A DNA stretch of 64,000 bases from an uncultured Acidobacteriota bacterium (lineage in GTDB: Bacteria; Acidobacteriota; Thermoanaerobaculia; UBA5066; DATFVB01): assembly GCA_963813155.1 (NCBI GenBank), contig CAWEYG010000001.1:79058-143057 (forward strand). Reading direction: 5' to 3'. Below are positions 6,344 to 63,700 of the stretch, one piece after another. The notes beneath the pieces were generated by a model, which was given only the letters and a program-made list of their open reading frames with translations, was not told the DNA's origin and did no database searches. Numbering within the stretch: position 1 is the first letter of the stretch; the number at the start of each line of letters is the position of its first letter. The position numbers and the translations under genes were made by a program.

Positions 6344-6420
6344 GGGCCGATGTAGCTCAGTTGGTAGAGCAGCGGTTTCGTAAACCGCAGGTCACCGGTT
6401 CAAGTCCGGTCATCGGCTCC
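6344..6420 (+). tRNA. tRNA-Thr (anticodon CGT)
   Basis: Cloverleaf: acceptor GGGCCGA/TCGGCTC, D-arm TGTAGCTCAGTTGGTAGAGCA, anticodon stem GCGGT/ACCGC with loop TTCGTAA, T-arm GGTTCAAGTCC. CCA is not encoded. Confidence 0.9.
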
Positions 6421-7934: not shown

Positions 7935-7938
<4 letters not shown>

Positions 7939-9448: not shown

Positions 9449-9486
9449 GGTTTCGCGTCCGCAAGCTCCTTCTGCTCTCGAGCGCG

Positions 9487-21581: not shown

Positions 21582-21617
21582 GAGCTCATGCTATCTCGCG
21601 GTGATAGCCTGCCCGTC

Positions 21618-23441: not shown

Positions 23442-23497
23442 TCGGGACTGGCCGTAGGATTTCGTGATTGGATGATGAGAGTACGAAAGGACGCTGC

Positions 23498-42233: not shown

Positions 42234-43265
42234 ATGCGACAATCGAGCGTGTTCTCAGCCCCGCTCGCCGAGACGGCCCGCTCGAACCTGAAATCCGTGA
42301 TTCGGGACGCCGTACGGCATCCCCCCGATTGCCCGGCGCTCCTCGTCTTCGATCGCGATTCGCCGCTGGCAAGGCTCCTGGCGACGGCCTACGAGACCGC
42401 CCTGCCGGAAGCGCGGGCCATCGAGTTCTCCGAAACGAAGAGCGACGAGGTTCTCGGAGCGGCGGCCGCGCTCTCCCCCGGCGACCTCGTCGTTCTCGTG
42501 GAGTCTTCCCGATTCCCGCTCGCCGCCCACCGCTTTCGGGTGGAACTGTTCGAGAAGGGCCTGAAAGTCATCGAGCATCCGCACCTGGGCCGAATCCAGG
42601 ACTCCGAGCTCGCCGCTTACGTCGATTCGCTGGCCTACGACGCGACATACTATCGGGCTGTCGGGCCCGAATTGAAAAGGCGCATCGACCGCGCGACGGG
42701 CGCGAAGCTCGTGGGGGCCTCGGGTCCGCTCGTCTACGACGGCCCGCTGGAAGCCGCGAAGCTCAACATCGGCGACTACACCGGCCAGGTCAATATCGGC
42801 GGCCAGTTCCCGATCGGAGAGGTTTTCACGGAGTCCCGGGACCTCGCGAGCGTCTCCGGAACGGTCGAGCTCTTCGCGTTCGGCGCGGCCGACTTCTCGG
42901 TTGTCGCGCCCGAATCGCCCATCCGGCTGCGGATCGAGGCCGGAAGAATCGCGGCCGCGGAAAGTGCTCCTCGGGATTTCGATTCGATTCTAGCCGAGAT
43001 CCGTGACAGTGAAGGCGAGGTCTGGCTGCGCGAGCTCGGCTTCGGGATGAACCGGGCGTTCACGCGGGAGCGGCGCGTCTCGGACGTCGGCTCGTACGAG
43101 AGGATGTGCGGCATCCACCTCTCGCTCGGGGCCAAGCATGCGATCTACGCGAAACCCGGCTTCTCGAAACGTCGCGTGAAGTACCACGTCGACGTCTTCG
43201 CGGCCGTGGAGCGCGCGGAGATCGATGGCGAGACTGTATACGCGGACGGGAAGTACGTGGTCTGA
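42234..43265 (+). CDS. hypothetical protein (343 aa); weak resemblance to M29-family aminopeptidase C-terminal region
   Basis: Complete ORF with no TM or signal peptide. C-terminal IHLSLGAKH...YHVDVF is reminiscent of the metal-binding motifs of thermophilic aminopeptidases. Low certainty. Confidence 0.45.
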   Translation: MRQSSVFSAPLAETARSNLKSVIRDAVRHPPDCPALLVFDRDSPLARLLATAYETALPEARAIEFSETKSDEVLGAAAALSPGDLVVLVESSRFPLAAHRFRVELFEKGLKVIEHPHLGRIQDSELAAYVDSLAYDATYYRAVGPELKRRIDRATGAKLVGASGPLVYDGPLEAAKLNIGDYTGQVNIGGQFPIGEVFTESRDLASVSGTVELFAFGAADFSVVAPESPIRLRIEAGRIAAAESAPRDFDSILAEIRDSEGEVWLRELGFGMNRAFTRERRVSDVGSYERMCGIHLSLGAKHAIYAKPGFSKRRVKYHVDVFAAVERAEIDGETVYADGKYVV

Positions 43266-45839: not shown

Positions 45840-47495
45840 ATGGCGAGAAAACTCGATCGGCGATCGCTTCTTCGGTATGGCGCTCTGGGAGGCGCGCTCG
45901 CCGCCGTGGCTCCGGCGCTGTCGCGCGCCGAACGCCCGGGAACGGCCGCGGAGAGTCCGGCTCCCCCGTTCGAGCTCGAAGAGGCGACGATCGACGAGCT
46001 TCAGAGACGGATGCAGGCCGGCCAGTCCTCGGCTCGATCGATCGCCCAGGATTACCTGACGCGCATCGATTCCCTCGACCGGCGGGGCCCTTCCCTTCGC
46101 TCCGTTCTGGAGATGAACCCGGAAGCCGTCTCGATCGCCGAATCTCTCGACGCGGAGCGAAAGGCGGGGAACGTTCGCGGCCCCCTGCACGGAATCCCGA
46201 TTCTCCTGAAAGACAACGTCGCGACGGCCGATCAGATGTCGAGCGCGGCCGGTTCGCTCGCGCTCGACGGCGTTCGCGCCCCGCGCGACTCCTTCGTCGC
46301 GAGACGCCTCCGCGAGGCCGGCGCCGTCCTCCTGGGAAAGACGAACCTGTCGGAATGGGCGAACTTCCGTTCGACGCACTCCTCGAGCGGTTGGAGCGGC
46401 CGGGGAGGCCAGTGCCTCAACCCGTACGCGCTCGACCGGACGCCCTCGGGCTCCAGCTCCGGTTCGGGAGCGGCCATCGCGGCGAACCTCGCGGCCGCCG
46501 CGGTCGGCACCGAAACGGACGGCTCGATCGTTTCTCCCTCGAACAACAACGCTCTCGTCGGCGTGAAACCGACGGTCGGTCTTCTCTCCCGAGCGGGGAT
46601 CGTCCCGATCTCCCACAGCCAGGACACTCCGGGGCCCATGTGCCGAACCGTCCGGGATGCCGCAATTCTCCTGACGGCCCTTGCCGGCATCGATCCCGAC
46701 GATTCCGCCACGGCTCAAAGCGCCGGAAAATCCATTCCGGACTATGCGGCCGGCCTCGACGAGAACGGGCTGAAGGGCGCGCGAATCGGGATCGCCCGGA
46801 AATCGCTGTACGGCTACAGCCCCGCGGCGGACCGGCTCGCGGAAGCGGCGATCGACGTCCTCAAGGGCCTCGGCGCAGTCGTCGTGGACCCCGCGGACAT
46901 CGAGACGGTCGACGACTTCGGGAAGAGCGAGTTCGAGGTCCTCCTCTACGAGTTCAAGGCGGACCTGAACGCCTACCTCGCCGCCCTCGGATCCGGCGCG
47001 CCGGTCCATTCGTTGAAGGAGGTCATCGCGTTCAACGAGAAGAATCGGGCCCGGGAGATGCCGTTCTTCGGCCAGGAAATCTTCGAGAAGGCGGAGGCGA
47101 AAGGGCCCCTGACCGACAAGGCCTATCGAAAGGCGCTCGAAAGCGACACGAAGGGCGCGCGGCAGAAAGGCATCGACGCGGTGATGGACAAGCATCGCCT
47201 CGACGCGCTCGTCGCGCCCACGGGCGCCCCCGCTTCCCTCATCGACCTCGTGAACGGAGACTACGGCTCCGGGGGGAGCTCGACGGTCCCGGCCGTCGCG
47301 GGGTACCCGCACGTGACCGTTCCGATGGGCTTCGCGTACGGCCTGCCGGTCGGGCTCTCGTTCTTCGGAAGAGCGTGGAGCGAAGCGAAGCTCCTGAAAT
47401 TCGCCTACGCCTTCGAGCAGGCCACGAAACACCGGAAGCCTCCGAAGTTCTTGACGACAGCGGACCTGACACTGGTCTCGAAAGGAGTCTCATGA
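45840..47495 (+). CDS. amidase-signature family amidase with Tat signal peptide
   Basis: RRSLLRYGALGGALAAVAPALS twin-arginine leader. AS signature GGSSSGSGAAIAANLAAAAVGTETDGSIVSPS with the Ser-cisSer-Lys context (LLKDN). Confidence 0.85.
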   Translation: MARKLDRRSLLRYGALGGALAAVAPALSRAERPGTAAESPAPPFELEEATIDELQRRMQAGQSSARSIAQDYLTRIDSLDRRGPSLRSVLEMNPEAVSIAESLDAERKAGNVRGPLHGIPILLKDNVATADQMSSAAGSLALDGVRAPRDSFVARRLREAGAVLLGKTNLSEWANFRSTHSSSGWSGRGGQCLNPYALDRTPSGSSSGSGAAIAANLAAAAVGTETDGSIVSPSNNNALVGVKPTVGLLSRAGIVPISHSQDTPGPMCRTVRDAAILLTALAGIDPDDSATAQSAGKSIPDYAAGLDENGLKGARIGIARKSLYGYSPAADRLAEAAIDVLKGLGAVVVDPADIETVDDFGKSEFEVLLYEFKADLNAYLAALGSGAPVHSLKEVIAFNEKNRAREMPFFGQEIFEKAEAKGPLTDKAYRKALESDTKGARQKGIDAVMDKHRLDALVAPTGAPASLIDLVNGDYGSGGSSTVPAVAGYPHVTVPMGFAYGLPVGLSFFGRAWSEAKLLKFAYAFEQATKHRKPPKFLTTADLTLVSKGVS

Positions 47496-47977
47496 ACACC
47501 CGCGAGTACTACGCCCAATGCTTCAAGGCGGAGAAGCCGAAATTCCTCCGCGTTCTCCAGGCCATTCCGCCGGACAAAGCCTCCTACCGCCCCCATCCGA
47601 AGAACAACGGCGCCGGCGACATCGCGTGGCTGCTCGCGAGCGAGCTCGCGGACGCCTGCGAGGTCGTCGACCATGGCCAGGTCGACTTCGTCCTGAAGCC
47701 GACTCCCGCGACGGTCGCCGAATCGGTCGCGGCCTTCGAGAAAAACGCGAACGAGCTCGAACGCCGCCTCCCGAAACTCGACGACGCCGCCTGGGAAAAG
47801 AAGGCGAAATTCCTCGTGGACGGAAACGTCGCGTGGGAAACGACGCTCGGAGACATGCTGTTCGGATTTCTCTTCGACGCGATCCACCACCGCGGCCAGC
47901 TCTCGGCGTACCTGAGGCCGATGGGCGCGAAGGTGCCCTCGATCTACGGGCCGTCCGCCGACGACCCGGGGGCGTGA
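47492..47977 (+). CDS. DinB-family (DinB_2/DUF664-like) protein
   Basis: 161 aa. His-containing four-helix bundle motifs (AWLLASELAD...DAIHHRGQLSAYLR). ATG overlaps the amidase stop. Confidence 0.6.
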   Translation: MNTREYYAQCFKAEKPKFLRVLQAIPPDKASYRPHPKNNGAGDIAWLLASELADACEVVDHGQVDFVLKPTPATVAESVAAFEKNANELERRLPKLDDAAWEKKAKFLVDGNVAWETTLGDMLFGFLFDAIHHRGQLSAYLRPMGAKVPSIYGPSADDPGA

Positions 47978-47984
47978 TCGCGCC

Positions 47985-48422
47985 CTAGTTGTTCGAGATA
48001 TTCGACTTCGACTTGACGATCGCCACGCTGACCGGCTGCGCGCCGTCGGAGTCGAATGAGATGTTCTCCGACGTCCGGCCGCTCCACTCCCGCGTGATCC
48101 GTCCTCCTGCCGTGCCGGTCACGGTGACGGTACACGCCTCGCCGGCTTTGGCGTCGCGAGGCGTGAGCGTAATCGTGTACGAGCCCTTTTCGATTTTGCC
48201 GAAATCGGCCTTTCCCTTGTCGTCGGTGGTGCGCGTGTCGGCAGTCGTGCGCGCGGCGGCCCCTCCGCCGGAGCCTTTTCCGAGCTTCACGTCCACTCCC
48301 TTGAGCGGCGCGCCGGCAAAGGCAACGGAAGCAGCCAGTGCCGTGACGCCGACGGCGAACCTCGCCAGATTTCCGAACGAATTCTTCCCCGGGAGACTCG
48401 TCATCCTCATCGCGTTCCTCAT
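47985..48422 (-). CDS. secreted protein with transthyretin/carboxypeptidase-regulatory-like beta-sandwich domain
   Basis: Signal peptide MRNAMRMTSLPGKNSFGNLARFAVGVTALAASVAFA. VDVKLGKG...TTDDKGKADFGKIEKGSYTITLTP. RBS GGAG 5 nt upstream of ATG 48422. Confidence 0.6.
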   Translation of the reverse strand: MRNAMRMTSLPGKNSFGNLARFAVGVTALAASVAFAGAPLKGVDVKLGKGSGGGAAARTTADTRTTDDKGKADFGKIEKGSYTITLTPRDAKAGEACTVTVTGTAGGRITREWSGRTSENISFDSDGAQPVSVAIVKSKSNISNN

Positions 48423-48604
48423 GTCACTCCTCTCTGGAATCGCATGAACAATAACTCCCGCTAGCGCGCGGATCAACAACGCGCGGGAGAAACCGCGACG
48501 TCTACGAGCTGTGGCCGTCAGCATTTGCGGCGAGTCGCTCAACTCTGGATTTTACCCGAGCGGTCTCGCGTCGCGCCCCGATCTGGCCGAGCTTTTGCTG
48601 TAAG

Positions 48605-51600
48605 GTGAACAGGGAAAACATGCCTTTTTCGAGACGCGCGAAACTCTGGAGCCACCTGGGGAAGGAACAGCCGATCCGGGCGGAGCTGTACGGACGCGAG
48701 CGTCTGGACGCCGAAGCGGCTCGACTGGCGTCCGCCCACCTCGGCAGCCTTCGGGCGGGGGGGAGAGGCCCGATGCGGGGCCGCCTCGAGGAGAACGACC
48801 GCCAGCTCCGGATGATTCACGCGTCGATCGTCGCGGGGGCCAAGCGCGGCGAGACCATCTCTCCGGCTGCCGAATGGTTCCTCGACAATTTCCATCTCGT
48901 CCTCGACCAGGTCCGCGAAGTCCGTCAGGACTTTCCCGCGCACTACGAGCGGGAGCTTCCGCACCTTACCCGGGGAGAGCTCGGCGGTTACCCGCGCGTC
49001 TACTCGATCGCCACAACGCTCGTCGCCCACACCGACAGCAGCCCCGACATGGAGACGCTCAAGAATTTCCTCGACGCGTACCAGGCGGTCTCTCCGCTGT
49101 CGATCGGCGAGCTGTGGGCGATTGCCGTCGCGCTCCGCGTCGCGCTGATCGAGAACCTCAGGCGCCTCGCCGGCCGCATGGAAGTCGCGCGGCGCGAGCG
49201 CGCAAAGGCCGACGCCCTCACCGAACGGGTGCTGTCGGCGCTCGAAACGGCGACCGGCCTTCCGGAGCGGGAGGCGATCGCCGAAGCCGTGTTGAAGGCT
49301 CCCGAACGGCGAGAGTTGAGAATCAATCAAACGTTTGCCGTGCGCCTCATTCAGCGCCTCCGAGACGTCGATCCGTCGCTCTCGACGGTACACCGGTGGA
49401 TCGAAGAAGGCCTCGCGGCCCAGGGACTCACGGTCGAAAGCGCGGTGCTGGCCGAGCACCAGAGGCAGACGACCGCGCAGGCGACGATCGCGAACATCAT
49501 TTCGAGCATGCGGCTCTTCTCGCAGGCCGCATGGCCGGATTTCGTGGAGTCTGTCAGCGCCGCCGAGCGGGTGCTCGAGGAGGACCCGGCGGGAGCCTAT
49601 CCGCACCAGGATTTCGAGACCCGGGACCGCTACCGGCACGTCCTCGAAGCGCTCGGGAACAGGGATGGCGCGCGCGAGCTGGCCGCCGCGCGCCGCGCCG
49701 TGGAGCTGGCGAGCGAGGGAGCCGCGCCCCGCGAACGCCACGTCGGCCACTACCTCGTGGACGCCGGCCGTCCGATCCTCGAGCGCGAGCTGGGCGTGCG
49801 CCCCGGGCTCGCGGCTGCCACCCGCCGTCTCGTCCTTCGCTCCCCTGCGGCGTTCTACATCGGGTCGATTCTCCTGATCACCGCGGCGATGGAGGCGATT
49901 GCAGGCGCCTACGTCCGGGCCCACGGAGCGGGCTGGACGATGCTCGCCGTGTCTCTCCTCCTGTCCCTGATCCCGGGAACGGAGCTCGCGCTCTCGATCG
50001 TGAATTTTTCCGTCAACTTCCTGATTCCTCCCCGCCGGCTTCCGAAGCTCAAATGGCGCGACGGCATCCCGGAGGACTTCCAGACGCTCGTCGCGGTCCC
50101 GTCTTTTCTCGGCGACGAGGAGGAAATCCGCGAGCTTCTGTCTTCACTCGAAATCCGCTCCTACGCCAACCCCGACCCGAACCTCCGCTTTGCTCTCCTG
50201 ACCGACTTCGGGGACGCGGACACGGAGACACTGCCGGACGAAGACCGGCGTCTTCAGCTGGCCGAGGACGGAATCCGGGATCTCAACTCCCGGGCCTCAT
50301 CGCCCGGGCGATTCTGGCTTCTCCACCGAAAGCGGCTGTGGAACGCGGCGGAGGGGAAGTGGATGGGGTGGGAGCGAAAACGCGGAAAACTGACGGAGCT
50401 CAACCGCCTCCTTCGCGGCCGCGGACCCACGAGTTTCGAGGTCGTGACCGCCGAACCGGCTGCCCTGGCGAAAATCCGGTTCGTTCTCACGCTCGACGCC
50501 GACACGCGGCTTCCCCGGGAGTCCGCGAGCGCGCTCGTGGGGACCCTCGCGCACCCGCTGAACCTTCCGCGGTCGGATGCGAAGACCGGGCGCGTCGTCG
50601 CGGGCTGCTCGATCGTCCAACCGCGCGTCTCCATCACTCCGGAAAGCGCGAATCGCTCTCCGTTCGCCCAGATCTCCTCCGGCCACGCGGGGATCGACCC
50701 CTACACGACCGCCGTCTCCAACGTCTACCAGGACCTCTTCGGCGAGGGCAGCTTCACCGGAAAAGCAATTTACGACGTGGACGCGTTCGAGTCCGCGCTC
50801 GCCGGGCGAATCCCGGAAAACGCGATCCTCTCGCACGACCTGCTCGAGGGCTGTCTCGCCGGCTCGGCTCTCGCAACCGACATCGAGATCTTCGAAGACC
50901 ATCCCTCGTCCTACGACGTCTACACGCGCCGGCAGCACCGCTGGATCCGCGGAGACTGGCAGATCGCCCGGTGGCTCGGCCGCAGTGTGCCGATGGAAAG
51001 AGGAATCGAGGCGAACCCGCTTTCGGCAATTTCCCGATGGAAGATCCTCGACAACTTGAGGCGGAGCCTCCTCGCACCGGCCCTTTTCCTCTGGCTCGCC
51101 GCCGCCTGGCTCTTCCTCCCGGGCTCTCCCTTTTTCTGGACGACTCTCGCGATGTCCGCGATCGCTTTCCCGATCATCTTTCATCTCGCCGAAGGCCTCA
51201 CCATCCACGCCCGGGGCGTTCCCTGGACGAGCCAGTTCTGGAGCGTCTGGGGAGATCTGCTGGACAATTGCGCGCAGTTCGCGCTTCGCGTCGCCTTCCT
51301 TCCCCACCTTGCGGAGGTTTCGATCGACGCCGCCAGCCGGGCCCTTTTCCGGCAGCTGATCTCCCACCGGCGACTCCTGGAGTGGACGACGGCGGCCGCC
51401 GCCGAAAAGGACCGCGTCTCCTCGGTCGCCGGCTACGCAAGGCGAATGGGGAGAAGCTGGGTGGTGTCCGCAGCGCTCGCCGGGGCGATCGTGGCGATCG
51501 CCCCGCGCCACCTGCCGGCCGCCGCCGGGTTCCTCCTCCTCTGGCTGATCTCGCCGGCGCTCGCCGCGGGCGTGAGCCGGCCGATTCGCCGGGAGCGACG

Positions 51601-54600
51601 CGAGCTGTCCGCCGAGGACGTGCTCGAGCTTCGCGAAACCGCTCGCCTGACGTGGAGATTCTTCGAGAAGTTCGCGAACGCGGAAGAGCACGATCTCCCC
51701 CCCGATAACTATCAGGAGGACCCCGAGCCGCGTGTCGCGCACCGGACCTCTCCGACGAACATCGGGTTCTCTCTTTTGTCGGCCGTCGCGGCCTTCGATT
51801 TCGGGTACGTGGGGATACGCGACCTCGTCGAACGCCTCGAACGGACGCTCGGCGTCGTGGAATCGCTCCCGCGGCTTCGCGGGCATCTCTACAACTGGTA
51901 CGACACGACGACCCTCGCACCCCTTCCGCCTCGCTACGTCTCGTCGGTCGACAGCGGAAACCTCGCGGCAAGTCTCATCGCGCTCAAGCAGAGCTGCCTC
52001 GAGCTGGCCGAGAGCTCGCCCCGACCTCCCTGGAGGGACGGGCTCGCCGATCTGATCCGTCTCGTTCAGAAGGAGGTCGATGCGATCCCCGCCTCGGGCG
52101 TTCGGACGGAGGCGATCCCGCTGCGCCAGCTCCGAAATCAGGTGCTCGCGCTCGGAGCGCTGCCCGCCTCGCCGAATGCGCTCGAAAGCGAAGTTCTCGC
52201 CGAAATCGAACAGAGCGGCTCGGCCCTCGAAGACGCCGTGCGGGCGCTCGCCCAGGAGCACGCGGAGATCCCGCTCGCCCAGCTGCTCGGCCTCCTCGGC
52301 GACGTGGCGCGGCAGGCCCGGTCTCTCGCGCGCGATTCCGAAGGCCCCGCCGACGCGCCGGCGATCGAACAGCGGCTCCGGGGGATCGCGAATCGCGCGC
52401 AAAAATTCGTGGACGAGACAGACTTCTCGTTTCTCTTCGACGGGGAAAGAAAGGTCTTTTCGATCGGCTGGAACGCGCAGATGGAGCGTCTGGACAAGTC
52501 GTACTACGACCTCCTGATCTCCGAGGCTCGGCTGACGAGCTTCTGCGCGATCGCCAAGGGCGACGTGCCGACGGAGCACTGGTTTCGCCTGCAGAGGCCG
52601 TTCGCCGTTTCTTTCAAGCGTCCGGTCCTTCTGTCCTGGTCGGGAAGCATGTTCGAGTACCTGATGCCCCTGATCCTCCTCCGGTCGTATCCCGACACGC
52701 TGCTGCACGAGACGTGCACAGCGGCGGTCGAGGCGCAGGTGCAGTACGTCCGGGGAAAGAAGATTCCCTGGGGCGCGTCGGAATCCGCCTACAACGCCCG
52801 GGACCTGCACCTCAACTACCAGTACGGCCCGTTCGGCGTGCCGGAGCTCGGCCTTCGCCGCGTTGCGCCGGACGAGCTCGTGATCTCTCCCTACTCGACA
52901 TTCCTCGCGCTGCTCGCGGACCCTTCGGGAGCGCCGGAAAACCTTCGTCGGCTCGCGGCCGAGGGAGCGCGCGGAGACTTCGGCTTCTACGAGTCGATCG
53001 ACTACACGCCGAGGCGCCTGCCCCCCGGCTCGACACGCTCCGTCGTCAAAGCGTTCATGGCCCACCACCAGGGGATGATCCTTCTCTCGATCCACAACGC
53101 CGTCCTCGCGGATCGCATGCGAAACCGGTTTCACTCGGACCCGGCAGTCCAGGCCACCGAGCTGCTGCTGCAGGAGCGGATCCCGCGCAACACGTCCGCG
53201 CTCGCCGGTTCGATCGTCGCCCAGGTGGCGGCTGGCCGGGTCGTCCGCGAGGAAATCGCGATCCCGACCCGGCGGTTCGATTCGCCCGATTCCTCGACGC
53301 CGCGCAGCCAGATTCTCTCGAACGGTTCCTACTCCGTGCTCGTGACGGTGGCCGGTTCCGGATTTTCCCAACGGGGCGGCCTGGCGGTTACCCGGTGGCG
53401 TGACGACCCCACGTCCGATTCCTGGGGCTCCTGGATCTACCTGCGCGACGTGAGAAGCGGCCAGCGATGGTCGGCAGGGCATCAGCCGACGCTCCGGCGC
53501 GCGAAGAGATACGAGGCGAAGTTCTCCGAGCACAAGGCTGAATTCCTGCGCATCGACGAGGGCATCGAAACGCGCATGGAGGTGATCGTCTCCGCGCAGG
53601 CGGACGTGGAGATCCGGCGAGTCACGCTGACGAACACCTCGACGAGGGCGCGCGACGAGCGGGACATCGAAGTGACGAGCTACGCCGAAATCGTCCTCGC
53701 GCCGCAGGCTGCCGACATCGCCCATCCCGCCTTTTCGAAGATGTTCCTCGAGACGGAGTGGACTGGCGGGAGGCTGCTCTGCAGCCGCCGGCCGCGCTCG
53801 CCGGAGGACAAGCCGGCGTTCGCCGCGCACGCGATGGCGGTGTCGGGCACGAGCCTCGGGGGCGTGCAGCACGAGACCGACCGCGCCCGCTTCCTCGGCC
53901 GCGGGCGGTCTCCCCGCGCCCCGGCCGTGCTCGTCGAGGATCGCCCGCTCTCCGACACGACGGGCGCAGTTCTCGACCCGATCTTCTCCCTGCGCCATCG
54001 CGTTCGCGTGCCGGCGGGCCACAGCGTCCAGATCGCGTTCGTGACCTCGGCGGCCGACACGAGGGAAGATGCGCTCGCCCTCGTCGACCGATTCAAGGAC
54101 CCCGCGCTGTTTGACCGCGAATCCTCTCTCGCGTGGATGCGGTCGCAGGTGCTGTTGAGGCACCTGAACATCACGAGCGACGAGGCCCAGCTGTTCCAGC
54201 GCCTCGCGACCCGCGCCTTCTACAACGACCCGAGCCTGCGGCCCGCCTCGGAGCTCCTGGCCCGCAACACGGGCTCGGCCCGAGCGCTCTGGGCCCACGG
54301 CATCTCCGGGGACCTTCCGATCGTGCTCGTCCGAATCGCCGACATGGAGGAGATCGATCTCGCGCGGCAGCTCCTGCGGGCGCACGAATACTGGAGCCTC
54401 AAGGGGATCACGGTCGATCTCGCGATCGTCAACGAGAGCGGGTCCGCGTATCTTCAGCCGCTCCAGGACCAGCTCAATGCGATCCTGGCGGCGTCTCCTT
54501 CGCGCCTCTTCGCGGGCAAGGCCGGGAGGAATCTTTCTTCGCAGCGCGGACCAGATTCCCGAGCAGGAGCGAATCGTGCTGGAGACGGCCGCCCGGGCGG

Positions 54601-57149
54601 TCCTCGTCGGGTCGAAGGGAACTCTCTCCGATCAGGTCCAGCGGATTCCTTCGAGCGAGATCCTGCCGGCCGCATTCGCGTCGACCGCACCGATCACGCC
54701 GCCGGCCGGCAACCCTCCCCTCGAGACCGGCAAGCTCTCGTTCTTCAATGGAATCGGCGGCTTCTCCGCGGACAGGCGCGAATACGTGATCGTTCTCCTC
54801 GAGAATCAGTACACCCCTTCGCCGTGGTCCAACGTGGTGTCGAACCCGTCTTTCGGCTTTCTCGTCACCGAATCCGGCTCGGGCTGCACCTGGGCGGAAA
54901 ACAGCCACGAAAACCGCCTCACGCCCTGGTCCAACGACCCCGTGACGGATCCGTCCGGCGAGGCAATCTACCTGCGCGACGAAGAGAGCGGCGAAGTGTG
55001 GACGCCGACGCCCCTTCCGATTCGGGACGCCGATCCGTATGTCTGCCGCCACGGCCAGGGCTATTCTCGATTCCTCCACCGGAGAAGCGACATCGAAAGC
55101 GACCTCACGATGTTCGTCCCGGTCGCCGACCCCGTGAAGGTCCTCCGTCTTCGCCTGACGAACCGGTCGGCGTCGCCCCGCAAGATTTCGGCGACGTTCT
55201 ACGCCGAGTGGGTTCTCGGGTCGGAACGGTCCGCGAGCGCGAGATTCGTCGTGACGGAGCCCGACGCGGACCTGCAGGCGATCTTCGCCCGAAACTCCTT
55301 CAACGCCGATTTCGCCTCGCGCACGGCATTCGCGCGAGCGAGCGGAGCGCTGATGTCCTGGACCGCCGATCGCCGCGAGTTTCTGGGGCGAAACGGCCAC
55401 CTGTCGGACCCCGCCGGGCTCCGGCGCGCAAGCCTGTCCGGCCGGAGCGGAGCGGCGCTCGATCCGTGCGCGGCCCTCCAGACCGCCGTCGATCTCGCTC
55501 CGGGAGAGTCGCGCGACGTCGTTTTCCTGCTCGGGGAAACGGACGGCCGCCCGGCCGCGGCCGGGCTGATCCGCCGCTACGGCGAGCCGGGCGGAGCGGA
55601 GACGGCGCTGCGCGAGAGCACCGCGGCGTGGGACAGGCTGCTCGGCGCGGTCCAGGTGCGGACCCCCGACCTCGCCCTCGACCTGATGGTCAATCGCTGG
55701 CTCCTCTATCAAACGCTGTCGAGCCGGGTCTGGGGACGGACCGGCTTCTACCAGTCGAGCGGCGGGTTCGGCTTCCGGGACCAGCTCCAGGACGTCACGG
55801 CGCTGCTGGCGTGTGCGCCGGAGCAGGCGCGCGAGCAGATCGAACGGGCGGCGTCCCGCCAGTTCCCGGAGGGGGACGTGCAGCACTGGTGGCACCCGCC
55901 GTCCGGGCGCGGCATCCGCTCCCGATGTTCCGACGATCTTCTCTGGCTCCCGTTCGTCGCGGCGCATTTCGCCGAGGTCACCGGCGATTCGACGATCTGG
56001 GATGCGGACGCGCCGTTTCTGGACGCGGCGAAGCTCGGCTCGGACGAGGTCGAGGCCTATCAGGAGCCGCGCGTGTCCGCCGAGCACGCGACGATCTTCG
56101 AGCACTGCGCGCGCGCGATCGACCGCAGCCTCGTCGTCGGAGAGCACGGCCTCCCGCTGATCGGCAGCGGGGACTGGAATGACGGCTACAACCATGTCGG
56201 GATCGGCGGCAAGGGCGAGAGCGTCTGGCTCGGATGGTTCCTCCTCGCCGTCCTCCAGAGCTTCCAGCCTCTCTGCGAGGCTCGGGGCGACAAAGGCCGA
56301 GCCGACCGGTATCGCAAGCACGCCGCCCGGCTCAAGTCCGCGATCGAAGCCCACGGATGGGACGGCGACTGGTATCGCCGGGCCTATTTCGACGACGGCG
56401 CGACGCTCGGCTCCGCCGCCGACGCCGAGTGCCGCATCGATTCGTTGTCGCAGACGTGGGCCGTCCTCTCCGGAGCGGGAGACAAGACGCGCACGGCGCG
56501 CGCGATGGTGGCCGTCCACGAATACCTCGTGCGCCGGGAGGACGGGCTCGTGCTGCTGCTGGCGCCGCCGTTCGACCGTTCGCCCCGCTATCCCGGATAC
56601 ATCCAGGGCTATCCCCCCGGAGTCCGGGAGAACGGGGGCCAGTACACCCACGCCGCGGCCTGGGCGGTGATGGCGTTCGCCCAGCTCGGCGACGGCGACC
56701 TCGCCTCCGAGCTCTTCTCGTACCTGAACCCGATCTCTCCGACGAGCACCCGGGCGGGCCTTCACAAATACAAGGTCGAGCCCTATGTGACCGCGGGCGA
56801 CGTCTACTCCGTACCGCCGCTGACGGGCCGCGGGGGATGGACCTGGTACACCGGATCGTCCGGATGGCTGTACCGGGCCGGCGTCGAATCGATCCTCGGC
56901 TTCCGGATCGAGGGAAAGCACTTCACGATCGACCCCTGCATCCCGCGGAGATGGCCCGGCTTCGAGATGGAATACCGCGACGGCGACACGCTGTACAAGA
57001 TCCGCGTCGAGAACCCGAAGGGCGTCTGCCGCGGCGTCGAGAGCGTCGAGGTGGACGGAGTCGCCGTTCCCGCGAAGCGGGTCTGCCGCGAGCACGACGC
57101 GAAGACCCACGAAGTCGTCGTGAGGCTGGGGTCCGGGTCCGCCTCTTGA
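48605..57149 (+). CDS. cyclic beta-1,2-glucan synthase-like giant glycosyltransferase/glycoside phosphorylase (about 2,850 aa; NdvB/ChvB/Cgs architecture); +1 frameshift at about 54524-54529
   Basis: N-terminal cytoplasmic region. GT domain with DxD-like TLDADTRLPRES and QHRWIRGDWQ. Multiple TM segments. Two GH94-like (cellobiose phosphorylase-like) alpha/alpha-toroid regions (GWDGDWYRRAYFDDG, GGWTWYTGSSGWLYR). The frames 48605..56182 and 54477..57149 join at LFAGKAG/GIFLRSADQ. Start is GTG 48605 or ATG 48620. Confidence 0.8.
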
Positions 57150-57152
57150 TCT

Positions 57153-57174
57153 AACGTACGTTATAGCGTACGCT
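57153..57174 (+). promoter_or_regulatory. twin palindromic operator sites (AACGTACGTT and AGCGTACGCT) immediately upstream of yefM
   Basis: Two 10-bp perfect palindromes sharing the CGTACG core, centres 12 bp apart, ending at the yefM ATG. This resembles the long/short palindrome operator bound by YefM-YoeB. Confidence 0.5.
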
Positions 57175-57423
57175 ATGGAAATGACGACGATCAGCGCGAC
57201 GAAGGCGAGGGCCGAGCTCTATCGGCTGCTCGACGAAGCCGCGGAAAGCCACGAACCAATAGAGATCACCGGCAAGCGCCACAACGGGGTCCTCGTCTCG
57301 GAGGAAGACTGGCGCGCGATCCAGGAGACGCTCTATCTCGTCTCGATTCCCGGGATGCGCGCGTCGATCCGCAGGGGCTTGAAAGCTCCGCTCTCGAAGA
57401 CCTCCGAGAAGCCCGGTTGGTAG
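57175..57423 (+). CDS. yefM: type II antitoxin, Phd/YefM family
   Basis: MEMTTISATKARAELYRLLDEAAESHEPIEITGKRHNGVLVSEEDWRAIQETLYL, canonical YefM N-domain. Confidence 0.9.
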   Translation: MEMTTISATKARAELYRLLDEAAESHEPIEITGKRHNGVLVSEEDWRAIQETLYLVSIPGMRASIRRGLKAPLSKTSEKPGW

Positions 57424-57689
57424 AGGGGCCCTGGCGGGTCGTCTTCACGAGTCAGGCTCAGAAGGACGCCCGAAAAATCGCCCAATCGGGACTTCGCTCG
57501 AAAGCCGAAGGACTGATCGAGATTCTCCGGAAGAATCCCCGACAGACCCCTCCCCCGTTCGAGAAGCTCGTTGGAGACCTCGCCGGCGCCTGCTCGCGCC
57601 GAATCAACCTCCAGCACCGGCTCGTCTACCAAATCCTCGACAAACAGAGGACCGTGAAGGTGATCCGCATGTGGACGCACTACGAGTAG
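57417..57689 (+). CDS. yoeB: type II toxin YoeB/Txe (RelE/ParE superfamily mRNA interferase)
   Basis: RINLQHRLVYQILDKQRTVKVIRMWTHYE C-terminus typical of YoeB. TTG start overlaps the yefM stop. Confidence 0.85.
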   Translation: MVEGPWRVVFTSQAQKDARKIAQSGLRSKAEGLIEILRKNPRQTPPPFEKLVGDLAGACSRRINLQHRLVYQILDKQRTVKVIRMWTHYE

Positions 57690-57782
57690 GTCGGCGGACG
57701 CATGCTATCCTCCCGCCCGATGCAGCCCACAGCGCGCGGTGGCAACCGCGCCGCCACATTCCCCTCGCCCTCTGGGAGAGGG

Positions 57783-58863
57783 ATGAGCGCCGAAGGCGCG
57801 AAGGGTGAGGGTGCCCTGCGAATCGCGGTCGTTCCGGGCGACGGCATCGGCGTCGACGTCACGAAAGAGGCGCTGAAAGTCCTGAACGCCGCCGCGAAAG
57901 CCGGGAAGCTCGACGTCGCGACGACCGAGTTCCCGTGGAGCGCCGATCACTACCTGAAGACCGGCGAATCGCTGCCGAAAGGCGCGTTCGACGACCTGCG
58001 CGCGAACTACGACGCGATCTTCATGGGCGCCTTCGGAGACCCGCGGGTCCCCGACATGGCCCACGCGCGCGACATCCTGCTCGGCGCCCGGTTCGTTCTC
58101 GACCTGTACGTCAACGCGCGTCCGATCCGGTGCCTCGACGATCGCCTCAACCCGCTGAAGGGCTTTCGGGCCGCCGACATCGACTTCGTGATCTTCCGCG
58201 AGAACACGGAGGGCTCCTACGCGGGGACGGGCGGCAACTTCAAGAAGGGGACGCCCGACGAGGTCGCGCTCCAGGAGGACATCTCCACGCGCAAAGGCGT
58301 CGAGCGGATCGTCCGCCACGCCTTCGAGTTCGCGAAGACCCGCGGCAAGAAGAAAGTCTGCATGTCGGACAAGAGCAACGCGATGCGCTTCGTCGGAGAC
58401 CTCTGGCAGCGGACGTTCTGGGAAATCGCGAAGGAGTACCCCACGATCGAGGCGTCGCACCTCTACGTCGACGCGCTCGTCATGCAGATGGTCAAGGACC
58501 CGACGCAGTTCGAGGTCGTCGTCACGAACAACATGTTCGGAGACATCACGACGGACCTCGGCGCCGCTCTCCAGGGCGGCCTCGGAATGGCGGCCTCCGG
58601 AAATCTCCATCCGGGGCAAGATCTCCATGTTCGAACCCGTCCACGGCTCCGCGCCGAAATACGCGGGCACGGGAAAGGCGAACCCGTTCGGAGCGATCCT
58701 GACCGTGGCAATGATGCTCGAGCACCTCGGAGCCGCGGAGTCCGCGCGAGCGATCGAATCGGCCGTCCAGACGTGCGTCGAACAGAAACGGTGCACGGCG
58801 GACATCGGAGGCTCCCGAACGACTTCCCAGGCCGGCGACGCCGTCGTTTCGCTGCTCGGTTGA
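57783..58863 (+). CDS. isocitrate/isopropylmalate dehydrogenase family protein (LeuB/tartrate dehydrogenase-like); +1 frameshift at G4 run 58613-58616
   Basis: LRIAVVPGDGIG. NLFGDITTDLGAALQGGLGMAASGNL, then in the next frame ISMFEPVHGSAPKYAGTGKANPFGAILTVAMMLEHLG. The frame-0 tail after 58616 is Arg-rich nonsense. Confidence 0.8.
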
Positions 58864-58905
58864 ATGCCGCGCCCCTTCCTTAACGGTTCTTAAGCAAGTA
58901 CCAAT

Positions 58906-58922
58906 CCGGCACCTCCCTTGCA
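58906..58922 (+). promoter_or_regulatory. sigma54 promoter (cGGCAC-N5-TTGCA)
   Basis: ccGGCACctcccTTGCAcc, near-consensus -24/-12, 53 nt upstream of ATG 58976. Confidence 0.5.
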
Positions 58923-58975
58923 CCGCCCCCGGGACTTTCAACCCCGGGTCCGCCCCGGAGAAAGGGAGCAGAAAG

Positions 58976-60100
58976 ATGAACCGGACATTAACGAGAACGC
59001 GCCATCGAGGAGCGGGGATCGCTTTCGCCGCGCTGCTGACGCTCGCGGCCGGGACGGCGTCCGCGCAGCGTTACATCCAGCACAACCTCGTCTCGGACGT
59101 GCCGTCGCTCGCGCCTCGCACGGATCCGAATCTCGTCAACGCGTGGGGAATCGCGCACAGCCCCACCGGCCCGATCTGGATCGCGAACAACGGCAGCGGG
59201 ACTTCGACCGTCTACGACGAGAACGGACTCCCCGTTCCGAACAAGACCGCGCCGCTCGTCGTCGCGATTCCCGAAGGGACGGCCAACACGGAGGGCGGCG
59301 TCCCGACCGGAACGGTTTTCAACGGGACCGGGCAGTTCGTCGTTTCGGCGAATGGAAAGAGCGGCTCGGCCGTTTTCCTCTTCGCCGGCGAGGACGGGAC
59401 GATCTCCGGCTGGAACCCGGGGGTGAACCCGACGCAGGCGATTCTCGGGGTCGACAACTCGACGAGCGGAGCGGTGCACAAGGGAATTGCCCTCGGAGCG
59501 ATGGGCTCGAACAATCTCGTGTACGTGACGAACTTCAATTCCGGTAATGTCGATGCGTACGATTCGAGCTTCGCGTTCGCGTTCTCTTTCACGGATTCGT
59601 CCCTCACGGCCCTGGGTTACGCGCCATTCGGCATCGCGAACATCAACGGAAACCTGTTCGTGAGCTTTGCCCAGCAGGACGCCGACAAACACGACGATGT
59701 GGCCGGCCCGGGTCACGGCTATGTCGACGAGTTCGACACGAGCGGAACACTGATCAAGCAGTTCGCCGCGCAGGGAACTCTCAATTCGCCGTGGGGAATG
59801 ACGCTCGCGCCGGACAACTTCGGCCATTTCTCCGGGGCGTTGCTCGTCGGAAACTTCGGGGACGGCCGGATCAACTCTTTCGACCCGTCGACCGGGGCAT
59901 TCCTCGGGCAGATGGCAAATCCGAACGGCTCGCCGCTCGCGATCGACGGGCTCTGGGGCCTCGCGTTCGGGAACGGTACGCAAGGAGGAGGCGCGGCCAA
60001 CCAGCTCTACTTCACGGCCGGGCCCGAGGGCGAAAGCCACGGCCTCTTCGGAAGAATTCAGGCGATTCCGGGACTCGCGCAGATGAACGGACGCAACTGA
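58976..60100 (+). CDS. secreted repeat-containing hypothetical protein (possibly TIGR03118-like beta-propeller family)
   Basis: Signal peptide MNRTLTRTRHRGAGIAFAALLTLAAGTASA. Repeated Gly/Asn-rich beta-strand motifs (NAWGIA, GSGTSTVYDENG, NSPWGMTLAP, GLWGLAFGNG). RBS GGAGAAAGGGAG. Confidence 0.6.
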   Translation: MNRTLTRTRHRGAGIAFAALLTLAAGTASAQRYIQHNLVSDVPSLAPRTDPNLVNAWGIAHSPTGPIWIANNGSGTSTVYDENGLPVPNKTAPLVVAIPEGTANTEGGVPTGTVFNGTGQFVVSANGKSGSAVFLFAGEDGTISGWNPGVNPTQAILGVDNSTSGAVHKGIALGAMGSNNLVYVTNFNSGNVDAYDSSFAFAFSFTDSSLTALGYAPFGIANINGNLFVSFAQQDADKHDDVAGPGHGYVDEFDTSGTLIKQFAAQGTLNSPWGMTLAPDNFGHFSGALLVGNFGDGRINSFDPSTGAFLGQMANPNGSPLAIDGLWGLAFGNGTQGGGAANQLYFTAGPEGESHGLFGRIQAIPGLAQMNGRN

Positions 60101-60169
60101 AGATCCTCACCCCGTCCTCACGGACACCCCTCTCCACAAGTTGTGGAGAGGGGCCGGGGGTGAGGAAAA

Positions 60170-62233
60170 TCAGTTCACGTCTTCCGGGGCTTCCTGGTTC
60201 TCGTCTTCCGGCTGAAACGCCCGGGCCGGACTCGGCTTTTCTTCCGGCTCGAGCTCGACGACCCATTTCTCGTAGGTCTCCCCCGGCAGCTCGGAGACGA
60301 ACCTCGACGATTCCAGGAGAACGTCCATCGAATAGCGGTCGCGCGCCAGCATCGGGTACGTGAGCGCGAGCTCGTTTTTCGCGCGAGTGCAGGCGACGTA
60401 GAACAGCCGCCGTTCCTCCTCGAGCCCCTCGGCGGTCGCGGCCGCGCGGAAATTCGGGAACCGGCCGTCGGACAGGCCGATCACGGCGACCCGGCTCCAT
60501 TCGAGGCCCTTCGCCTGGTGGATCGAGGAGAGGACGACTTTCTCGTCCTCCGGCAGTCCCGCGACCGTGTCCTCGCCCGAGAGCTCGTTGTAGAGGGAAA
60601 CCTCGTCGAGGAACTTCGGGAGCGAGTCGTACCCGCCCGCGAACTGGGCGAGCTGCTCCAGGTCGTCCAGCCGCGCGTCGCCGTTTGGAAATTTCGCCCG
60701 CGCGAAATCGCGGTAGACCTGCTCGACGATCAGGCGAATCGATTCTGCCGGCGAATTGCGAACCGACGGCGTGTCCAGCTTCGCGAAGAGGGAGCGGCAT
60801 GGCTCGAGCGCCGCTTCCACGCCGCGCCCGTTGATGGATCGCCCGCCGCGCTGGAAGGCTTCGAGCGGATGCGCCGTGCCGCCGATCGCTTCCCAGATCT
60901 GCGTCGCGGTCCGCTCGCCGATCCGGGGAAACACCTTCAAGGCCCGTTTCCAGGAGATCTCGTCTTTCGGGTTCGCGAGGACGCGGAGGAACGCGAGGAC
61001 GTCCTTGACGTGGCGCTGCTCGAAGAACCGCATGCCCGAGCGGATCTCGTACGGGATTCCCCGCCGCGTGAGCTCCAGCTGGAGCTCCATCGCCTGGTAG
61101 TGGGAGCGGTACAGCACCGCGCAGTCGGAAAGGCGGTCTCCTTCGTCCCGCCATTCCAGCAGGCGCTGAGCAACGAACCGGGCCTGGTCGAACGCGTCGG
61201 GCAGCGGGACGACGGCCGGGAGCACGCCGCTGTCCCGGACGGCCGAGAGCTCTTTCGGAAACTGCCTTTCGTTCTTCGCGATGGACGCGTTCGCGAGGCG
61301 GAGGATCTCGGGGGTCGAGCGGTAGTTCGTCGTCAGGCGAAACACCCGGGCCTCGGGATGGCGCTCCGGAAAGCCGATGATGTTGTCGAACGAAGCTCCC
61401 CGAAACGCGTAGATCGATTGCGCGTCGTCTCCGACGACCGAGATGTTCCCGTGGCCCCTCGCCATTCCGTCGACGATCTCCCCCTGGAGCCGGTTCGTGT
61501 CCTGGTATTCGTCCACGAGGACGTGGGCAAACCGCTTCGAGAGGGCCTCGCCCGAGGGGGTCGAGAGCAGCACCTTCCAGTGCAGGAGAAGATCGTCGTA
61601 GTCGCACGCCCTCGCCGCCTTTTTGCGCTCGAGGTACCGCTGAAAAACCGAAACGATCTCCTCCTGGAGCGGAAGGAAGTGGGGGGCGCGCTCGGCGAGG
61701 ACCTCCGACAGCTTGCGCTCCGTGTTGATCGTGAAGGAGTACAGGTCGAGGAGCACGTCCCCTTTCGGAAAGCGCTTTTCGAGCGTCGGGATCTTCAGGT
61801 CGGAGGTCGCCGTCTCCAGCATCTCTCGGGCGTCCTCCGCGTCGAGGATCGAGAAATTCGGAGGGAGCCCGATCTGCTCGCCGTACTGGCGCAGCAGCCG
61901 GTTTCCGACCGAATGGAACGTGCCGCCCGCCATCTTGCGCGTGTCGATCGTCAGCAGCGCTTCGACGCGGCGCATCATTTCCCGCGCGGCCTTGTTCGTA
62001 AATGTCAGGAGGAGGATTTTCGCCGGGTCGACTCCCGATTCGATGAGCCTCGACACCCGGTACACGAGAGTCCGGGTCTTTCCCGATCCCGCCCCCGCGA
62101 TCACGAGGACCGGGCCGTTTCCCGCGAAGACGACCTCCTTCTGCTCCGCGTTGAGCTCCCGGTCGTAATCGATCCGGTAGTTCACGGAGGGGACCGGAGT
62201 CCGAAGGACGTACTTCTTCATGCGACCGGCCAT
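60170..62233 (-). CDS. UvrD/PcrA/Rep-family ATP-dependent DNA helicase with acidic C-terminal tail
   Basis: Motif I GAGSGKTRTLVYRV. Motif II VLVDEYQDTN. Motif IV TNYRS. Motif VI VACTRAKNELALTYP. Start is ATG 62233 or 62221. Confidence 0.9.
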   Translation of the reverse strand: MAGRMKKYVLRTPVPSVNYRIDYDRELNAEQKEVVFAGNGPVLVIAGAGSGKTRTLVYRVSRLIESGVDPAKILLLTFTNKAAREMMRRVEALLTIDTRKMAGGTFHSVGNRLLRQYGEQIGLPPNFSILDAEDAREMLETATSDLKIPTLEKRFPKGDVLLDLYSFTINTERKLSEVLAERAPHFLPLQEEIVSVFQRYLERKKAARACDYDDLLLHWKVLLSTPSGEALSKRFAHVLVDEYQDTNRLQGEIVDGMARGHGNISVVGDDAQSIYAFRGASFDNIIGFPERHPEARVFRLTTNYRSTPEILRLANASIAKNERQFPKELSAVRDSGVLPAVVPLPDAFDQARFVAQRLLEWRDEGDRLSDCAVLYRSHYQAMELQLELTRRGIPYEIRSGMRFFEQRHVKDVLAFLRVLANPKDEISWKRALKVFPRIGERTATQIWEAIGGTAHPLEAFQRGGRSINGRGVEAALEPCRSLFAKLDTPSVRNSPAESIRLIVEQVYRDFARAKFPNGDARLDDLEQLAQFAGGYDSLPKFLDEVSLYNELSGEDTVAGLPEDEKVVLSSIHQAKGLEWSRVAVIGLSDGRFPNFRAAATAEGLEEERRLFYVACTRAKNELALTYPMLARDRYSMDVLLESSRFVSELPGETYEKWVVELEPEEKPSPARAFQPEDENQEAPEDVN

Positions 62234-62287: not shown

Positions 62288-63700
62288 ATGCTCTATCCGT
62301 CGAAAGGAGATCTCGTGACGATCGGCCCCGACGCCTCACGCAAGCGCTGGATCCTCGCGGCGACGATCCTCGGCTCGACGATGGCGTTCCTGGACGGGAC
62401 CGTCGTCAACGTCGCGCTCCCCGTCATTCAGCGAAAACTCCACGCACCCCTGTCCCGCGTTCAGTGGGTCGTCGAGGCGTATCTGCTCTTCATTTCCGCG
62501 CTGCTGCTCCTGGGGGGCTCGCTCGGCGACCGGTTCGGGCGAAAGCGCGTCTTCGTCGCGGGCACCGCGATCTTCGCTTTTGCCTCCGCCGCCTGCGGCG
62601 CAGCGCCCTCGACCGGAGCGCTGATCGCTGCAAGGGCGATTCAGGGGATCGGCGGGGCGCTCCTCGTTCCAGGCAGCCTCGCGCTCATCACGGCAAACTT
62701 TCCCCCGGGAGAGCGCGGGCGCGCGATCGGGACCTGGTCGGGAGCGACGGCGCTCACGACCGCGCTCGGGCCGCTCGCGGGAGGATTTCTTGTCGACGCG
62801 GTCTCGTGGCGCGCGATTTTCTACCTGAACGTTCCCATCGCCGCCGGGGTGATCGGGATCACGCTCCTTCGCGTTCCCGAGAGCCGGGACCCGGATTGCA
62901 AGCCGCTCGACCTCGCGGGCGCGGCCCTCGCGGCCGGCTCGCTGGCGGGAATCACCTTCGGCCTGACCGAGGCGTCGCGCGGCCCGTTCGGCTCGCCGGC
63001 CGTGCTCGTTCCCCTTCTCGCCGGCCTTCTCCTGGGCGCCCTGTTCGTCGTCCATGAATCGAGGAGCCGCCATCCCATGCTCCCCCTTGCGCTTTTTCGG
63101 TCGCGAGCGTTCACCGCGACGAATGCCGTCACCCTCTTCCTCTACGGATCGGTCGGCGCGATGTTCTTCTTCCTTCCCTTCGAGCTGATCCAGGCCCGTC
63201 GGTACACCCCCACTCAGGCCGGAGCAGCGCTGCTGCCGTTGATCGCCGTGATCTCGACCCTGTCCCGCTGGACGGGAAAGCTCGGCGAGCGCGTCGGCCC
63301 CCGCCTGCCCCTGACTGCCGGACCGCTGCTCTCCGCCGCGGGCCTCCTTCTGTTTCTGATTCTCCCGCCGGGCTCCTACTGGACATCCGTGTTCCTGCCG
63401 ATTCTCGTCGTCGGCTTCGGGATGGCGCTCGCCGTACCCCCGCTGACGACGACGGTCATGAGCTCCGAGAAGGAAAAATACGCGGGCATCGTGTCCGCCT
63501 TCAACAACACGGTCTCGAGGATCGGGAGCCTCTTCGCGATCGCGGGGCTCGCGATCGCGGTCGCCGCAACGAGCGGCGCGTTCGCCTCGCCCGTCTCGGC
63601 GGCATTCCGAATCGCGATGGGAGGCTCGGTCACGCTCGCGATCGCGGCGGCGGTCATCGCGGCACTGTTCCTGCGACCCACGGGCTCCATCAGCCGGTAA
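62288..63700 (+). CDS. MFS transporter, DHA2 (EmrB/QacA-like, 14 TM) family
   Basis: 470 aa. Motif A GGSLGDRFGRKRVF. 14 predicted TM helices. Confidence 0.85.
   Translation: MLYPSKGDLVTIGPDASRKRWILAATILGSTMAFLDGTVVNVALPVIQRKLHAPLSRVQWVVEAYLLFISALLLLGGSLGDRFGRKRVFVAGTAIFAFASAACGAAPSTGALIAARAIQGIGGALLVPGSLALITANFPPGERGRAIGTWSGATALTTALGPLAGGFLVDAVSWRAIFYLNVPIAAGVIGITLLRVPESRDPDCKPLDLAGAALAAGSLAGITFGLTEASRGPFGSPAVLVPLLAGLLLGALFVVHESRSRHPMLPLALFRSRAFTATNAVTLFLYGSVGAMFFFLPFELIQARRYTPTQAGAALLPLIAVISTLSRWTGKLGERVGPRLPLTAGPLLSAAGLLLFLILPPGSYWTSVFLPILVVGFGMALAVPPLTTTVMSSEKEKYAGIVSAFNNTVSRIGSLFAIAGLAIAVAATSGAFASPVSAAFRIAMGGSVTLAIAAAVIAALFLRPTGSISR

Follow-up and report, generated by a model that had tools for sequence, protein, structure and literature searches.

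Does an uncultured acidobacterium of the class Thermoanaerobaculia encode an intact synthase of cyclic beta-1,2-glucan (Cgs), or only the front part of one? The question is raised by a cgs-type gene on the forward strand of contig CAWEYG010000001.1, in a 64-kb stretch (64,000 nucleotides, nt; hereafter the window) where the interval 48605-57149 measures 8545 nt, a length not divisible by three, and is spread over two reading frames. Our answer, to which we give a probability of roughly 0.85 as a whole, is that the interval encodes a Cgs, that its frame break is a one-base insertion introduced in the assembly and that the gene has a probable sigma54-type promoter. The value of the analysis is mainly that of a clean-up: the gene appears to be a textbook Cgs orthologue, and its apparent truncation is best explained by homopolymer indels of the kind left by long reads.

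As deposited, the gene is covered by two open reading frames (ORFs). The first (frame A, 48605..56182, 2525 codons) is sensible through ...AILAASPSRLFAGK, where the authentic Cgs sequence ends at about 54520, and continues as Arg/Pro-rich nonsense; the second (frame B, 54477..57149, 890 codons) is sensible from ...PGGIFLRSADQIPEQ onward and supplies the remaining Cgs sequence. At about 54500 the periodicity of G+C content at third codon positions (GC3) leaves frame 2 for frame 0, coinciding with the change of ORF. Deletion of one G gives a continuous protein of 2842 residues from the ATG at 48620, free of other stops or shifts, that aligns at 100% coverage with the closest homologues, P0001 and P0002, both intact (2840-2848 residues, 86% and 81% identity). 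This ATG (MPFSRR...) is the start used by P0002, is conserved in P0001 and is likely the start of cgs. The GTG at 48605 is simply the earliest codon at which translation could begin; transcription is predicted to start only downstream of it, near 48610 and 10 nt ahead of the ATG, which speaks against this GTG as the start codon. A reading made from the sequence alone (the sequence-only reading) had described one protein of about 2850 residues; its order of glycosyltransferase, membrane region and tandem GH94 region agrees with our Pfam and PDB comparisons, while the single protein is found only as two ORFs in different frames. With residues counted from ATG 48620, the gene is made up as follows, the assignments coming from alignment to Agrobacterium tumefaciens Cgs (AtCgs) and, for the first part as a whole and the transmembrane (TM) segments, also from hydropathy.

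48620..54520, forward strand: cgs part 1, residues 1-1967, frame A
~48620-49834, forward strand: N-terminal domain
~49847-50014, forward strand: TM1-2
~50027-51064, forward strand: GT84 domain
~51068-51574, forward strand: TM3-6
~51575-53230, forward strand: cyclase (GH189)
53231-54520, forward strand: GH94 GP1, with the greater part of the Rossmann-like subdomain
54522..57149, forward strand: cgs part 2, residues 1968-2842 and stop, frame B, with the end of the Rossmann-like subdomain, GH94 GP2-GP3 and the catalytic Asp

The comparison with PDB shows both parts to be collinear with the cryo-electron microscopy structures of AtCgs (8RF0 and 8RF9). In the N-terminal part, query residues 24-1960 match 25-1951 of the 8RF0 chain (E=0), and in the C-terminal part residues 9-831 match 1974-2806 (E=2.6e-241), the break being spanned by a poorly conserved stretch of about 22 residues between the two matches. 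Pfam adds Glyco_trans_2_3 (626-855), Glycoamylase (1300-1511), two copies of the GH94 supersandwich PF06165 and the GH94 catalytic domain PF17167 (E=1e-116), and the cyclase region, assigned to GH189 (a family with a GH144-like fold), matches 8WY1 (E=1e-101) and 8RF0 (E=3e-98). Hydropathy places six TM segments around the glycosyltransferase domain, two before and four after, with peaks at residues 410-465 and 817-985. Neither half is matched by any NCBIfam model, so the family name rests on PDB and Pfam. The proposed identity as a Cgs thus held, and the outcome named as its refutation, best matches to phosphorylase fusions without GT84, was not what we found: the GT84 domain aligns to AtCgs 469-808 with E=2e-97.

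We then mapped the key GT84, cyclase and GH94 residues, using the index of the 8RF0 chain, which equals the numbering of PMC10901819 as verified on the TLDADT motif (D624/D626), and the GH189 residue set defined on the Thermoanaerobacter italicus cyclisation domain (PMC10834661). All 16 are conserved, and every functionally tested residue named in the two studies is present in the window Cgs.

D529: GT84 UDP-coordinating Asp, AtCgs D527
R586: GT84, AtCgs R586
D626 / D628: GT84 UDP-coordinating Asp, AtCgs D624 / D626
Y695: primer tyrosine in a GIDPY motif of the IF1-homology loop, predicted to be glucosylated, AtCgs Y694
D740: GT84 catalytic base, AtCgs D739
R774 / R777: GT84 RW motif, AtCgs R773 / R776
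S1108 / D1111: cyclase, AtCgs S1101 / D1104
E1302: cyclase, AtCgs E1300; GH189 acid/base, T. italicus E1356
E1346: GH189, T. italicus E1400
E1388: GH189 nucleophile, T. italicus E1442
H1482 / H1483: GH189, T. italicus H1536 / H1537
D2387: GH94, AtCgs D2393
D2521: GH94 catalytic acid, AtCgs D2528

On these alignments the interval 48605-57149 is predicted to encode a synthase of cyclic beta-1,2-glucan, an ordinary member of a well-characterised family that is common in the Acidobacteriota. If it works as Cgs of A. tumefaciens does, the membrane-anchored enzyme would autoglucosylate a tyrosine (Y695), the GT84 domain would lengthen the beta-1,2-glucan chain using UDP-glucose, the C-terminal GH94 phosphorylase would cut the chain to length and the central GH189 cyclase would free the ring in a transglycosylation reaction; a transporter encoded elsewhere would then carry the product into the periplasm.

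The frame break itself lies at 54518..54529 on the forward strand, where the window reads AAG G CCG GGA GGA and has one base too many, the surplus being the G at 54521 or a G of the run 54524-54526. The codons at the break are AAG CCC GGA GGG ATC and AAG CCC GGC GGC ATC at the loci of the two nearest homologues, L001 and L002, respectively, and AAG G CCG GGA GGA ATC in the window; written continuously, the window has AAG[G]CCGGGAGGAATC and L001 has AAGCCCGGAGGGATC. Deleting the extra base yields ...SRLFAGKPGGIFLRS..., the alternative placement KAGG. The position corresponds to about residues 1963-1965 of AtCgs, within its Rossmann-fold-like subdomain 1847-2012 (PMC10901819). Beyond the break, 875 codons follow without a stop and the catalytic D2387 and D2521 are intact. 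Measured against the 86%-identical gene of P0001, the Nei-Gojobori ratio of nonsynonymous to synonymous divergence (dN/dS) comes to 0.100 for the part before the break and 0.107 for the part after it; the same two parts give 0.137 and 0.155 for the intact pair L001/L002.

The break is not the only one in the window. The gene infB for IF-2, at 33531-36286 on the forward strand, is spread over three frames by two one-base insertions about 180 nt apart, near 34490-34500 and near 34670-34675, the second within the C run of ATCGCCCGAGGAG; the middle frame reads through ...IAVEIA and the third through ...GHVDHGKT. Spliced together, the three frames align without interruption to residues 299-664 of E. 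coli IF-2 (E=1e-113), and as this essential gene is broken twice, indel errors in the assembly are indicated. A gene of the Iso_dh family (similar to 3-isopropylmalate and tartrate dehydrogenases) at 57702-58883 on the forward strand switches frame at 58615-58619, where the window has CCGGGGC and its relatives CCGGGC or CCCGGGA, and the ~80 residues of its C-terminus are encoded in the following frame, with an end near 58860. All four events (one in cgs, two in infB, one in Iso_dh) are +1 shifts, as a single inserted base gives, at G/C-rich sites, and a short run of G or C contains or adjoins each of the three that could be placed precisely. A coarse periodicity scan of the window gave no further cases, which makes about 4 events per 64 kb. 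The pattern is that of residual long-read indel errors, and with infB, Iso_dh and cgs all hit, every gene call on the contig is best treated as frameshift-prone. Because infB and Iso_dh carry breaks like that of cgs and dN/dS is equal on its two sides, we consider it most likely that the assembly wrongly inserted one base in cgs as well and that the gene is not truncated in the organism. The sequence-only reading had spoken of a corrected ORF while leaving the frameshift unevaluated; a one-base correction does yield the full protein, and the need for it most likely comes from the assembly.

The third part of our answer concerns transcription. A sigma54-type element stands just 5' of the gene, and three sigma54 enhancer-binding proteins are encoded elsewhere in the window.

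48584..48599, forward strand: sigma54-type -24/-12 promoter-like element TGGCCGAGCTTTTGCT, with GG at 48585-86 and GC at 48597-98
695-2611, reverse strand: sigma54 enhancer-binding protein
6667 to ~7950, reverse strand: sigma54 enhancer-binding protein
26815-28176, reverse strand: sigma54 enhancer-binding protein

The sequence TGGCCGAGCTTTTGC (48584-48598) fits TGGC-N7-TTGC with the canonical spacing of GG and GC and lies 21 nt 5' of the ATG. This pattern occurs three times in the window, with 1.06 occurrences expected by chance, and the sole match of the whole locus in both L001 and L002 lies at the equivalent position and at equal distance to the ATG. In the three-way alignment of these loci with the window, 16 of the 19 motif columns are invariant, and the 84 columns upstream of the motif are essentially unconserved, roughly a quarter of them being invariant. 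In the relatives of 59-66% identity (L083-L085), the DNA upstream of cgs lacks the motif. In the window, no sigma70-like site was detected in 47400-60200. A second sigma54 candidate, TGGCCGTCAGCATTTGC at ~48511, was rejected as its spacing is two bases too long. One of the three enhancer-binding proteins is of the FHA-domain type and two are of response-regulator types, none of them linked to cgs; next to one of them lie a histidine kinase (7935-8651) and another two-component cluster (8699-11064). Both the possible sigma54 site beside cgs and the sigma54-rich background that had been pointed out earlier are thereby borne out.

The position and conservation of this motif make it probable that, within the narrow clade, cgs is transcribed from a sigma54-dependent promoter just 5' of the ATG, and this conserved element, if it is a promoter, is the only mildly new feature of the locus. 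The cgs genes of rhizobia, Agrobacterium and Brucella are expressed largely constitutively, as reported. We put forward, tentatively and with some doubt, that cgs of the Thermoanaerobaculia clade is transcribed by sigma54 and that cyclic glucan synthesis may be switched on by a signal-sensing enhancer-binding protein. Sigma54 control of cgs in Thermoanaerobaculia is thus a small, testable hypothesis; if true, it would suggest that in free-living soil Acidobacteriota cyclic beta-1,2-glucans have a regulated role independent of any host, such as a part in responses to osmotic stress or desiccation.

A number of observations count against parts of our answer. The dS to P0001 is 0.83, and a very recent real mutation would therefore be invisible to dN/dS. 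Just 5' of the break, at 54512-54517, the window encodes Ala-Gly where 11 of 11 aligned homologues have (V/L/A/Q)-Asp, and the Asp lost here, part of a DKPGG motif, is invariant in that alignment; the Ala-Gly could be local sequence noise or a real change. An exact-pattern scan of metagenome contigs across the break gave no match to either corrected version. The -24 box agrees with the sigma54 consensus in TGGC only, and the 64-kb window contains no rpoN gene. That the product would be cyclic beta-1,2-glucan is drawn from homology alone, and the window holds neither an ABC (ATP-binding cassette) exporter of the Cgt/NdvA/ChvA type nor a modifier gene. The lack of an ndvA/cgt-type exporter had been noted before: our scan for LSGGQ together with Walker A found SMC as the sole ORF, so the only ABC signature motif of the window belongs to SMC. 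Linkage to an exporter is not diagnostic, as five alphaproteobacterial cgs loci, two of them from Rhizobiales, likewise contain no ABC exporter ORF within 10 kb of cgs. The window has two major facilitator superfamily (MFS) genes, at 21591-22811 and 62288-63700 (the latter of the DHA2/EmrB type); we know of no link between these and cyclic glucans.

The break is present in the sequence as given and the invariant Asp beside it is altered too, and one may ask whether cgs is a recent pseudogene, encoding residues 1-1967 followed by ~553 out-of-frame residues, without GP2-GP3 and making no cyclic glucan. The truncated A. tumefaciens proteins Cgs1-1846 and Cgs1-1540 lose function (PMC10901819), and since a true break would likewise remove GP2-GP3, it would probably mean an inactive enzyme and a dead gene. 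We nevertheless find such a loss unlikely: same-type breaks twice in the essential infB and once in Iso_dh point to technical indels throughout the contig, and the part downstream of the break has a near-equal dN/dS, stop-free codons and its two catalytic aspartates intact. The same breaks in infB and Iso_dh also speak for error where one would otherwise suppose that the frame is really divided, either into a split enzyme whose second half is translated in frame B from the ATG at 54477 and assembles with the first, or by a +1 ribosomal frameshift that restores the full length. That ATG does sit 44 nt ahead of the break, and the GH94 active site of AtCgs is dispensable, though the domain itself is required as a scaffold (PMC10901819). 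On the other hand, the homologues listed or examined are unsplit (2621-2993 residues), those aligned or fetched are continuous across the site, and the slippery or stop-codon context of programmed frameshifting is not present, which makes a divided frame hardly credible.

If the gene is intact, its product could still differ, being a linear beta-1,2-glucan or a ring of another size, or serving a role beyond osmoadaptation and host interaction. The identity to the Rhizobiales orthologues in our tree (Aquabacter and Devosia) is only 47-48%, the bacterium is an acidobacterium that lives free in soil or sediment and is not known to have a host, and no exporter is linked to cgs. Against this, all residues known to be required for priming, elongation, cyclisation and phosphorolysis are kept, and the isolated cyclase domain of the comparably distant T. 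italicus homologue yields cyclic beta-1,2-glucans (PMC10834661); we therefore regard a variant product or role as very improbable and retain an ordinary Cgs, with a probable assembly error in its gene, as the best explanation of the locus.

The window is chromosomal core DNA with a GC content of 64-70%, carrying SMC, MutL, PPDK, GlyQS, RecO, CstA, DegP, RimP-NusA-InfB-RbfA-TruB, PNPase, OmpA, MsrA, amidase and DinB, and its PNPase has 84% and 72-73% identity to proteins labelled Thermoanaerobaculia bacterium. The background is thus non-rhizobial, as had been said, with a host in the Thermoanaerobaculia (Acidobacteriota); since full-length homologues span many phyla, a Cgs outside the rhizobia is expected and not surprising. 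With the Cgs query, more than 2000 proteins had E<=1e-50 among 8000 candidates evaluated. Among the matches listed, full-length homologues of 39-48% identity come from genomes and metagenome-assembled genomes labelled with more than 10 phyla, the labels including Acidobacteriota, Myxococcota, Gemmatimonadota and Bdellovibrionota-type groups; Alpha-, Beta- and Gammaproteobacteria; and Verrucomicrobiota, Planctomycetota, Nitrospirota, Bacteroidota, Chloroflexota, Actinomycetota and Clostridia. The locus is one more case showing cyclic beta-1,2-glucan synthases to be widespread in free-living bacteria, beyond the host-associated Alphaproteobacteria.

In a neighbour-joining tree the window Cgs falls in a clade with P0001, P0002, P0004 (66% identity), P0005, P0009, P0010 and P0013, a clade that is Thermoanaerobaculia-related, and the Rhizobiales representatives lie outside it. 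The order cgs, variable slot, Iso_dh, TIGR03118-family gene, UvrD and MFS gene is kept in L001, L083 and L084, and L002 has the same order as far as its shorter contig extends. We counted the conserved gene order and the separate clade for vertical inheritance of cgs, and the tree suggests a vertical placement within the Acidobacteriota. The TIGR03118-family gene of the window, at 58976-60100 on the forward strand, encodes a secreted protein (380 bits, cut-off 80) and holds the same place in the block of cgs, Iso_dh and UvrD in L001, L083 and L084.

The immediate neighbours of cgs are less constant.

~47503-47977, forward strand: DinB, syntenic with L001
47985-48431, reverse strand: small ORF for a secreted protein, divergent from cgs, its N-terminus resembling a signal peptide and its beta-sandwich resembling prealbumin / CarboxypepD_reg
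57175..57423, forward strand: Phd/YefM-family antitoxin, 82 residues (PF02604, 68.7 bits, cut-off 29.8)
57417..57689, forward strand: YoeB/ParE-superfamily toxin, 90 residues (PF06769, 33.6 bits, cut-off 27; PF05016, 30 bits, cut-off 23)

The secreted beta-sandwich protein reported next to cgs is probably the reverse-strand ORF, all Pfam matches of which are below gathering thresholds. L001 lacks it, DinB there being the gene immediately before cgs, and it does not belong to the Cgs system. Two forward-strand ORFs over the same region (47518-47988 and 47989-48447) were rejected as Arg-rich off-frame artefacts of high GC, the real genes being DinB and the reverse-strand ORF. On the other side, the toxin-antitoxin module recognised earlier is a Phd/YefM-YoeB pair at 57175-57689, its genes overlapping by 7 nt and both exceeding the Pfam cut-offs. 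Between cgs and Iso_dh the pair fills the variable slot, which is empty in L001 and L002 and holds other small genes in L083-L085. L001 and L084 have a different pair, a Phd antitoxin with a PIN toxin, near UvrD; the window has none there, UvrD (60170-62233) being followed immediately by the MFS gene at 62288. Toxin-antitoxin modules appear to move around within the syntenic block.

Elsewhere in the window, a tRNA gene lies at 6346-6418 on the forward strand, between SMC and an enhancer-binding protein gene (RF00005, 74.6 bits), and is the sole Rfam match at the gathering threshold. Two forward-strand ORFs supported by GC3, at 23468-24502 (344 residues, with a signal-peptide-like N-terminus) and 42234-43265 (343 residues), have no Pfam or NCBIfam matches.

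Set beside known systems, the window Cgs is closest in kind to A. tumefaciens Cgs (ChvB; 8RF0, 8RF9; PMC10901819) and to the Brucella and Sinorhizobium Cgs and NdvB proteins. Its length is similar (2842 residues, 2818 in the PDB chain), it shares with AtCgs the order of N-terminal domain, two TM segments, GT84, four TM segments, cyclase and GH94 with a Rossmann-like insert, and it keeps every residue that the structural study mutated or named, the tyrosine glucosylation site among them. The figure of ~47-48% identity to Rhizobiales orthologues comes from the tree members Aquabacter and Devosia, not from AtCgs. Unlike in A. tumefaciens, the host is a free-living member of the Thermoanaerobaculia, no chvA/ndvA-type exporter is adjacent, and the gene has a predicted sigma54-type promoter and, as deposited, a one-base frame break.

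A Cgs from Firmicutes has been characterised previously (PMC10834661), and the window protein retains the residues E1356, E1400, E1442 and H1536/H1537 of that T. italicus cyclisation domain (GH189; 8WY1); here the match is limited to the cyclase domain, and the region of the four-helix insert aligns poorly. The GH94 phosphorylases acting on cellobiose, chitobiose and 1,2-beta-oligoglucan match the C-terminal 800 residues (E=1e-77 to 1e-91) and have the catalytic Asp (GDWNDG) in common with the window Cgs, but they are soluble enzymes that stand alone, with neither a GT84 nor a cyclase domain. The neighbouring toxin-antitoxin pair is arranged like other type II modules of the Phd/YefM-YoeB kind, with the antitoxin preceding the toxin, a short overlap and a toxin ending in ...WTHYE; it differs from the typical module in having been inserted between cgs and Iso_dh specifically in this lineage, with no functional tie to cgs indicated.

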